Assembly (NCBI RefSeq): GCF_003334305.1
Contig: NZ_QOWS01000003.1
DNA length: 64,000 nt
DNA from: Escherichia coli
GTDB taxonomy: Bacteria; Pseudomonadota; Gammaproteobacteria; Enterobacterales; Enterobacteriaceae
Strand: one strand, 5' to 3'
Below the pieces are notes generated by a model, which worked only from the letters and a program-made list of their open reading frames with translations, was not told where the DNA came from and did no database searches. This document shows positions 42,788 to 43,149 of this stretch, piece after piece. The translations under genes and the position numbers were made by a program. The stretch's first letter is position 1, and every line of letters begins with the position of its first letter.

Positions 42788-42855
42788 AGTATCTATTCAT
42801 CAATAGCAACTGATTTATAGATTTACTATTATTTTTCATATGGATAGAAAATAAA

Positions 42856-42888
42856 ATCTATTCAAGTATCTATTCACGAATCTATTCA
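42856..42888. repeat. Three tandem 12-bp direct repeats (core atctattca), with a fourth copy at 42791-42799
   Basis: atctattcaagt / atctattcacga / atctattcattt at 42856, 42868, 42880; gtatctattca also at 42789-42799. Confidence 0.7.
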
Positions 42889-43149
42889 TTTATGTTCAGC
42901 CGTCATCCAGGAAGGGCATATCAGCAACTCTGGTGGACAACCATAAATTTCTGCCATTTTGCTTTTGATGTTTGAGCTAAACCGTTCCGTCTTTTCGATC
43001 TATTTTAGAGAATTAATCGAGATACCTAACATTTTACTTACTTCAGCAAGCGATAATTTATGCCTGATACGCACGGCGGCTAGCCAGGAAATACGCTGGC
43101 TTAACATTAAATTGATAATCTCCCGCTCCTGGTTTTCCAGATCGATCAT
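42886..43149 (-). pseudogene. XRE-like HTH reading frame interrupted by an in-frame TAG (49 codons + TAG + 37 codons)
   Basis: Minus-strand ATG 43149 with aggaagg RBS: MIDLENQEREIINLMLSQRISWLAAVRIRHKLSLAEVSKMLGISINSLK, TAG at 43000-43002, then in frame IEKTERFSSNIKSKMAEIYGCPPELLICPSWMTAEHK, TGA at 42886-42888. The two halves together resemble one HTH_XRE domain. Below the 60-aa track cutoff. Confidence 0.4.

Follow-up and report, generated by a model that had tools for sequence, protein, structure and literature searches.

The deoD-lplA intergenic region of a 64,000-nucleotide stretch of Escherichia coli DNA (contig NZ_QOWS01000003.1; the whole stretch is hereafter called the window) contains four exact copies of the 9-bp box ATCTATTCA, three of them in a phased array and the fourth placed upstream. 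Sequence comparisons across bacteria suggest, with a probability of about 0.75, that these four copies constitute the bipartite, autoregulatory control site of hipH/yjjJ, which in K-12-type strains encodes a 443-codon helix-turn-helix (HTH)-HipA kinase toxin and sits between the array and lplA, and that this site is orphaned and probably vestigial in the window. Three exact phased boxes are present on the hipH-sense strand, together with a distal box about 65 nt upstream that falls in the modal distance class, and hipH (NF007297) is absent directly downstream, so that the region is an orphaned copy and not an active hipH locus. The components of the putative site are the following:

42791-42799, plus strand: distal putative HipH box, exact core ATCTATTCA, starting 65 nt upstream of the start of box 1.
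42800-42855, plus strand: 56-nt spacer with the short-allele sequence, at the position of the hipH promoter in relatives.
42856-42888, plus strand: proximal array of three putative HipH boxes ATCTATTCA (42856-42864, 42868-42876 and 42880-42888) with linkers AGT and CGA.

The 12-bp units of the proximal array read atctattcaagt, atctattcacga and atctattcattt (starts at 42856, 42868 and 42880), and the fourth core copy, gtatctattca, is located at 42789-42799, on the 3' side of the deoD terminator. Tandem Repeats Finder reported 42855-42888 with period 12, 2.8 copies and 86% matches, and a repeat search returned the identical register for the three phased copies plus a copy at 42788-42804, the repeats being direct and not inverted. 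The exact 9-mer occurs four times across the 64,000 bases (starts 42791, 42856, 42868 and 42880), against a chance count with a mean of 0.31 and a maximum of 2, and four copies were reached in none of 100 dinucleotide shuffles; the phased repeats and their fourth copy are thus present as described in a first-pass annotation of this DNA. When one mismatch was allowed, 10 copies were seen in the whole window and 10.5 were expected, which is the chance level, so only the exact, clustered copies stand out. Motifs of TorR, ArgR, NarL, DnaA, IHF and CRP were considered as candidates and discarded, none of them matching the 12-bp phase or the core.

A scan for two phased boxes (pattern ATCTATTCANNNATCTATTCA) has been carried out in one genome per species of GTDB r220, about 100,000 species genomes, and at least 120 stretches were found. 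Among the matches listed, to which the counts of loci given below also refer, at least 68 stretches are located 0-110 nt upstream of a HipH homologue, all of them co-oriented with it, and two more are loci broken off inside a HipH-type N-terminus, for a total of at least 70. The linked homologues belong to several proteobacterial orders, Enterobacterales among them, and their identity to K-12 HipH ranged from 95% in E. albertii to 30-40%, the latter in Xanthomonadales, Burkholderiales, Morganellaceae and a Verrucomicrobia metagenome-assembled genome (MAG). The hipH-linked loci contained two units in 27 cases, three in 36, four in 4 and five in 1, and the most constant positions of the box were 5-9 (ATTCA), A1 and C3, with T or A as the preceding base. 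About 20 genera of Enterobacterales share one layout, which consists of the deoD stop, a terminator, the distal box, the spacer, three boxes, the hipH ATG, lplA and ytjB. Outside Enterobacterales, no deoD, lplA or ytjB match was found in the fetched flanks of the array loci, which indicates that there the boxes follow hipH and not the neighbourhood; hipH is monocistronic and is the sole constant neighbour of the boxes.

The listed matches away from hipH were mostly coding repeats or chance occurrences, with no HipH-type HTH nearby except at the two truncated hipH loci. In five contigs of a Verrucomicrobiaceae MAG, an open reading frame (ORF) for a P-loop ATPase of 354 aa is preceded at 19 nt by the same two phased boxes, apparently as a repeated element, and in Acinetobacter two boxes lie 16 nt before the gene tag; neither has a HipH-type HTH nearby.

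This distribution bears on the origin of the repeats. Neutral slipped-strand duplication in an AT-rich spacer, without function anywhere, has a practically negligible probability. Slippage by one unit length does occur, as seen in strain B1.H1.1, which has two units, and this part of the slipped-strand proposal of the first-pass annotation stands; however, the conservation of sequence, phase, orientation and distal distance across orders, in spacers that cannot be aligned, contradicts a neutral duplication. Unchanged repeats in K-12 at a position unrelated to any regulator had been set beforehand as an argument for plain AT-rich spacer; the repeats are indeed unchanged in K-12, yet there they directly precede the HTH-bearing hipH, and the check points the other way. 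An iteron-like role was not borne out either, as the region lies between deoD and lplA on the chromosome, no rep-like ORF is present, and the repeats are tied to hipH on chromosomes, plasmids and phage contigs. What is sustained is the suggestion of a protein-binding array of operator type, on the basis of conservation across orders, a phased distal copy and covariation of the boxes with the HTH recognition helix.

An upstream box with at most one mismatch was found 63-66 nt from the first proximal unit (start to start) in 38 loci, the distance in the window being 65 nt, and the remaining distal boxes were located at 53-55, 75-77, 86-87 and 96-97 nt. These distance classes fit a period of about 10.7 nt best and are out of register for 9.5 or 12 nt, and the spacer that separates the distal box from the array is unalignable across genera. 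Judged from these comparisons, the fourth copy is part of the design of the site. A constant helical phase maintained over a non-conserved spacer indicates a constraint on the DNA duplex and speaks against a purely RNA-level role. In other genera the spacer contains promoter-like hexamers (TTTACC-17 nt-TATAAA or TTGACA-17 nt-TTTAAT), and in some Xanthomonadales box 1 is directly adjoined by TTGACT, and about 7 nt separate the ATG from a preceding TTCAAT or TTCACT made by box 2, which suggests an overlap of operator and promoter and a near-leaderless mRNA in this group.

It is very improbable that the repeats act instead in the RNA, as a structured or protein-bound 5' leader governing translation or stability of hipH. 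The boxes of Enterobacterales do fill the interval from the putative -10 to the ATG, without a Shine-Dalgarno sequence, and footprints downstream of the transcription start site (TSS) in the published Reg-Seq data may reflect effects on the mRNA. However, the helically phased distal box is placed on the upstream side of the promoter region, the Xanthomonadales boxes overlap the core promoter, and the direct repeats have no self-complementarity. A search of Rfam 15 gave no match at gathering score, the sole match being a chance-level one to a snoRNA model away from the repeats, at 42959-43055 (25 bits versus 37, E = 0.14).

The relation between the boxes and the protein was analysed in samples selected by protein only, which were meant to avoid a motif-led bias and included plasmid homologues obtained by tblastn and IMG/VR homologues obtained by a peptide-pattern scan. 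Phased ATCTATTCA-type boxes were present in 8 of the 11 families with the helix S-Q-[A/P]-T-x-S-R, versus canonical phased boxes in 0 of 7 families with an altered helix (Fisher p = 0.004, without phylogenetic correction). The canonical helix together with phased boxes was found in E. coli IncY phage-plasmids, an IncC plasmid, Proteus, Acidovorax, Comamonas and three viral contigs. Families in which the helix is altered have repeats of a different kind, listed below:

Allochromatium: helix DRATLLR, repeats ATCGTTGCA twice at a 12-nt phase.
Vitreoscilla: helix SVATLHR, repeats ATCTTTGCA and ATCTTCTCA.
Polaromonas: helix SRATLMR, repeats ATCGTTTCA.
Two viral families: helices NRMTLSR and TRPTLSR, repeats TACGTAAC and TTCGTAAC, distal and proximal.

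An alignment of 33 homologues revealed that R31 is invariant and S25, Q26 and T28 nearly so, and in the AlphaFold (AF2) model, with a pLDDT (predicted local distance difference test) score of 93, S25, Q26, T28 and R31 open helix 3 of a predicted winged helix formed by residues 3-53. In Pfam, HipH has a HipA_C match and a weak MarR_2 match at residues 11-35, and the NCBIfam family is NF007297; no solved structure of a HipH relative was found by sequence search. The E. coli IncY phage-plasmid-like replicons, of about 95 kb, encode a distant hipH of 35% identity that has three phased boxes of its own, and these match the chromosomal ones, so that cross-talk with chromosomal or orphan boxes is conceivable.

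Gerdes et al. proposed that the HTH of HipH "may function to bind DNA", with no site named (PMC8262856). Liao et al. reported that cyclic di-GMP (c-di-GMP) raises hipH transcription via the promoter region and binds HipH with a dissociation constant (KD) of about 7.6 uM, that HipH toxicity requires the HTH and that HipH is located on the nucleoid (PMC11452175). In the Reg-Seq study, two repressor sites were described for yjjJ relative to a computationally predicted TSS at 4621716, with the library ending at +45, and no factor was attributed to the second of them, at +30 to +45 (PMC7567609 supplement). Relative to this TSS, and with the hipH ATG at 4621769, the K-12 boxes occupy +17 to +25, +29 to +37 and +41 to +49, so the second Reg-Seq site corresponds to box 2 plus the start of box 3. 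Full-text literature searches found no description of HipH repeats or of a HipH operator, and the text matches of ATCTATTCA were unrelated primers.

Several observations weigh against an autoregulatory HipH site that is vestigial in the window, and they are considered together here. The scan required two perfect boxes, and the share of matches beside hipH therefore describes what the motif marks and not the share of hipH genes that have boxes; about 45 of the matches listed were unrelated to hipH (among them coding repeats, the Verrucomicrobia repeat element and Acinetobacter tag). Three canonical-helix cases depart from the pattern, namely two Aeromonas plasmids with one box and one Diaphorobacter plasmid gene with none, and the helix-box covariation comprises few families and is uncorrected for phylogeny. 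Simple sigma-70 and terminator scans of the plus strand in the window and K-12 gave nothing usable, with no promoter in the E. coli spacers, for which reason the promoter has been placed by means of the other genera. All four boxes are perfect in the window and their 65-nt spacing is intact. The Reg-Seq TSS is a predicted one and the library stops at +45, and the larger upstream Reg-Seq site, at -24 to +18, was attributed to MarA by knockout and motif (PMC7567609 supplement). Finally, chromatin immunoprecipitation with exonuclease treatment (ChIP-exo) of myc-tagged YjjJ in MG1655 gave zero binding sites, its own gene included (PMC8464067).

The empty ChIP-exo result, the attribution of a nearby site to MarA and the Reg-Seq site left without a factor would be accounted for if the boxes were bound by another host factor, such as the Reg-Seq repressor, MarA or a nucleoid protein, with hipH regulated but not autoregulated. 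We consider this unlikely, as the boxes accompany hipH to plasmids, phage-plasmids and other orders with hipH as their only constant neighbour, the box sequence shifts with the recognition helix of HipH, and the exact motif is not dispersed in the 64-kb window.

In the autoregulatory mechanism proposed for the boxes, each HipH monomer would read a single 9-bp box through its N-terminal winged helix, in a head-to-tail arrangement. The distal box and the three-box array would bracket the 56-nt stretch that holds the hipH promoter in relatives, and the protein on the distal box would touch that bound to the proximal array, about six helical turns away on the other side of the promoter, which would require both to be on the same face of the helix; the resulting HipH complex would repress hipH transcription. 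We infer HipH as the binder, repression as the effect of binding, and the loss of function of the array in the window strain; such repression would be the autoregulation that is usual for type II toxin-antitoxin loci. A more specific version, in which the HipH winged helix specifically recognises the ATCTATTCA boxes, with head-to-tail repeats and a phased distal box clamping the promoter, c-di-GMP would release HipH, and recurrent hipH loss is the purging of a toxin beside its own site, has in our opinion slightly better than even chances.

Operators that bracket a promoter and depend on helical phase are well known in lac (O1-O3), gal (OE-OI) and deo (deoO1-O2). The putative HipH site resembles them in having sites on either side of the promoter, at distances that are whole turns apart (54, 65, 76, 87 and 97 nt), and differs in its short span of about 65 bp and in the proximal element, which is a head-to-tail triple instead of a single palindrome; looping would be deduced from the spacing. 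In hipBA of K-12, HipB dimers bind four palindromic promoter operators and are bridged by HipA (PMC8262856). The likeness is that of a HipA-family toxin promoter with several short sites for the HTH of its own locus, which would imply cooperative assembly and autorepression. However, the HTH of HipH is predicted to be a winged helix fused to the kinase, whereas hipBA uses a separate HipB of Xre/Cro type; the putative sites of HipH, whose binding is a prediction, are direct 9-bp repeats with a 12-bp phase and a distal copy, whereas those of hipBA are palindromic; and the toxin gene is absent in the window. The array, made of direct repeats, is not an operator of hipBA type, in which palindromic half-sites are bound by a dimeric HipB. 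It has also been proposed that the N-terminal extension of HipH could be an in-cis regulatory or antitoxin domain (PMC8262856). HipH resembles toxins with an in-cis antitoxin in that its gene is monocistronic, without an adjacent antitoxin gene, and its N-terminal domain would be free for DNA binding and self-control; the difference is the specific DNA target predicted here.

When 5,426 complete E. coli genomes were compared with the deoD-lplA interval by megablast, two alleles were distinguished. The short allele, as in the window, was found in about 4,058 of 5,418 genomes (about three quarters), and the hipH/yjjJ allele in about 1,339, in which the first 169 bases are shared and are then followed by hipH on the plus strand. 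In K-12 the array ends 3 nt before the hipH ATG, the boxes are located at ATG-36, -24 and -12 (hipH start at 4621769 in MG1655), and the fourth copy is also found 3' of the deoD terminator. The window and MG1655 hipH/yjjJ (b4385) therefore have in common the terminator, the distal box, a 56-nt spacer, a 100% identical array and the ATG; they differ in that the window is without the hipH coding sequence and has instead 286 bp with an opposite-strand Xre-like pseudogene, and in the spacer, which is 59% alike. The spacer measures 56 nt in every Escherichia allele, with 59-70% identity between allele types. Between the window and K-12, E. albertii or E. marmotae-type sequences, this spacer shows a quick turnover at constant length, the flanking genes being 95-98% alike. 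In E. coli TB354 (locus L009, positions 1-428) an IS200C transposase gene lies between deoD and hipH, directly upstream of the distal box.

The 33-nt array with its linkers is 100% identical among the window, K-12, JJ1887 and E. albertii. Of the 1,339 hipH-bearing genomes, 1,333, with K-12 and CFT073 among them, share one sequence of the 56-nt array region, which is polymorphic among short-allele genomes. E. marmotae-type short alleles have mutated boxes (ATCCATTCA, ATCAATTCA and a distal ATCTATTTA) with an unchanged spacer and an intact Xre-like gene, and the short allele of E. coli B1.H1.1 retains two boxes after deletion of one 12-bp unit, with a frameshifted Xre-like gene. The polymorphic array, the lost unit and the E. 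marmotae-type mutations fit a relaxed constraint in short-allele lineages.

The remaining features of the region in the window are the following:

42006-42725, plus strand: deoD, purine nucleoside phosphorylase, a 239-aa ORF and the upstream neighbour, annotated as deoD in the identical record NZ_AP018802.1.
42757-42789, plus strand: intrinsic terminator of deoD, with a 9-bp stem (arms 42757-42765 and 42776-42784), a 10-nt loop and a T-run.
42892-42894, plus strand: ATG left over from the lost hipH, marking the left junction of the replacement; similarity to K-12 and JJ1887 stops directly after it.
42895-43180, no strand: 286-bp replacement segment, in the place of the 1,329-bp hipH coding sequence of K-12-type strains.
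42886-43149, minus strand: Xre-like HTH pseudogene of 87 codons, interrupted in frame by TAG (43000-43002) at codon 50, which is Gln in intact alleles.
43181-44197, minus strand: lplA, lipoate-protein ligase A, an annotated 338-aa ORF at the right edge of the variable segment.

The arms of the deoD terminator, AAGCCGGAG and CTCCGGCTT, are 100% complementary and are followed by TTTTT, and a hairpin with a T-run is found at this site in about 20 Enterobacterales genera, each with its own sequence. As indicated by the comparison with the hipH allele, the hipH coding sequence, from just after its ATG to the lplA stop, is replaced in the window by the unrelated 286 bp with the broken Xre-like gene. 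No blastn or tblastx similarity was detected between this segment and the K-12 hipH region, so that an origin by deletion or inversion of hipH was rejected, and tblastn revealed no hipH homologue anywhere in the 64 kb. The earlier idea of a rearrangement scar from the loss of a larger gene is correct in that the 443-codon hipH was lost, but the array itself would be the surviving upstream control region, with the junction located after the ATG. A 27-codon ORF (MFSRHPGRAYQQLWWTTINFCHFAFDV, 42892-42975, plus strand) opens at the retained hipH ATG and overlaps the 3' portion of the Xre-like frame in antisense. A 13-nt inverted repeat (AGGAAGGGCATAT and ATATTCCCTTCCT, 42909-42921 and 43148-43160, 92% complementary) flanks the Xre-like ORF; its rough chance expectation is about 0.1 for the interval, and it could represent the ends of the insert or a coincidence.

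The Xre-like frame was considered in the first-pass annotation as a possible owner of the array, and it is highly implausible that the repeats are the operator of this adjacent HTH protein. Its TGA is the complement of 42886-42888, within the third box, and the protein is intact in O157:H7, B-type and further strains (precomputed Pfam PF01381); in the identical RefSeq record, the frame 43149..42886 is annotated as a pseudogene with an internal stop. However, its homologues are confined to Escherichia/Shigella, whereas the boxes span orders and predate the arrival of the gene at the locus; no Xre homologue was found by tblastn beside the array in the loci listed; the array lies past the 3' end of the gene and not at its promoter, and the final two codons and the TGA of the frame were formed out of the former hipH leader and start codon; K-12, which does not have the gene, has an identical array; and E. 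marmotae-type boxes decay although the gene is intact. Two divergent-looking Xre homologues (P0033, with 72% identity; Logan SRR13921544 and SRR18740011) were discarded as artefacts, their contigs being nearly G-free and apparently assembled from bisulfite-converted reads.

At this same locus, orphan arrays without hipH that keep the distal box were also found in Enterobacteriaceae bacterium RIT691, Serratia plymuthica and two Pantoea. In RIT691 a 217-aa membrane-protein ORF begins directly after box 2, in the Serratia and Pantoea loci the array directly faces ytjB, and at a further locus (L123) about 70 hipH codons are left behind the array. The orphans of Pantoea, Serratia plymuthica and RIT691 indicate that hipH has been lost repeatedly while its control region was kept.

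Whether an orphan array could still be active has been considered, either as a weak promoter or roadblock for a transcript antisense to the Xre-like frame and lplA, or as a dock for a HipH encoded by a plasmid or prophage. The perfect boxes of the window would suit such a role, as would the age and frequency of the short allele, which is carried by about 75% of complete E. coli genomes and also by E. marmotae, the persistence of the Pantoea and Serratia arrays with their distal box, and the IncY phage-plasmids that bring hipH with matching boxes into E. coli. Nevertheless, such activity seems doubtful: in other short-allele lineages the boxes mutate at about the neutral rate and the spacer does not, the array is polymorphic in the short allele versus invariant in the hipH allele, the sigma-70 scan gave no promoter-like site on the plus strand, a hipH match was present in just 31 E. 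coli plasmid records, and the orphans of other genera were detected only through two remaining perfect boxes. The array of the window strain is most likely a relic, as far as sequence data indicate.

For annotation, the repeats do not belong to the HTH pseudogene beside them. About three quarters of complete E. coli genomes are without hipH at this position and yet have its putative control region, which matters when results obtained in K-12 are extended to the species. The toxin kinase HipH/YjjJ has been linked to persistence and genome instability, and the analysis offers a prediction for it that includes the 9-bp box, the copy number, the 12-bp phase, the phased distal partner and the putative reading residues S25, Q26, T28, S30 and R31. 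If true, the HipH branch of HipA kinases would thereby gain its first defined operator.

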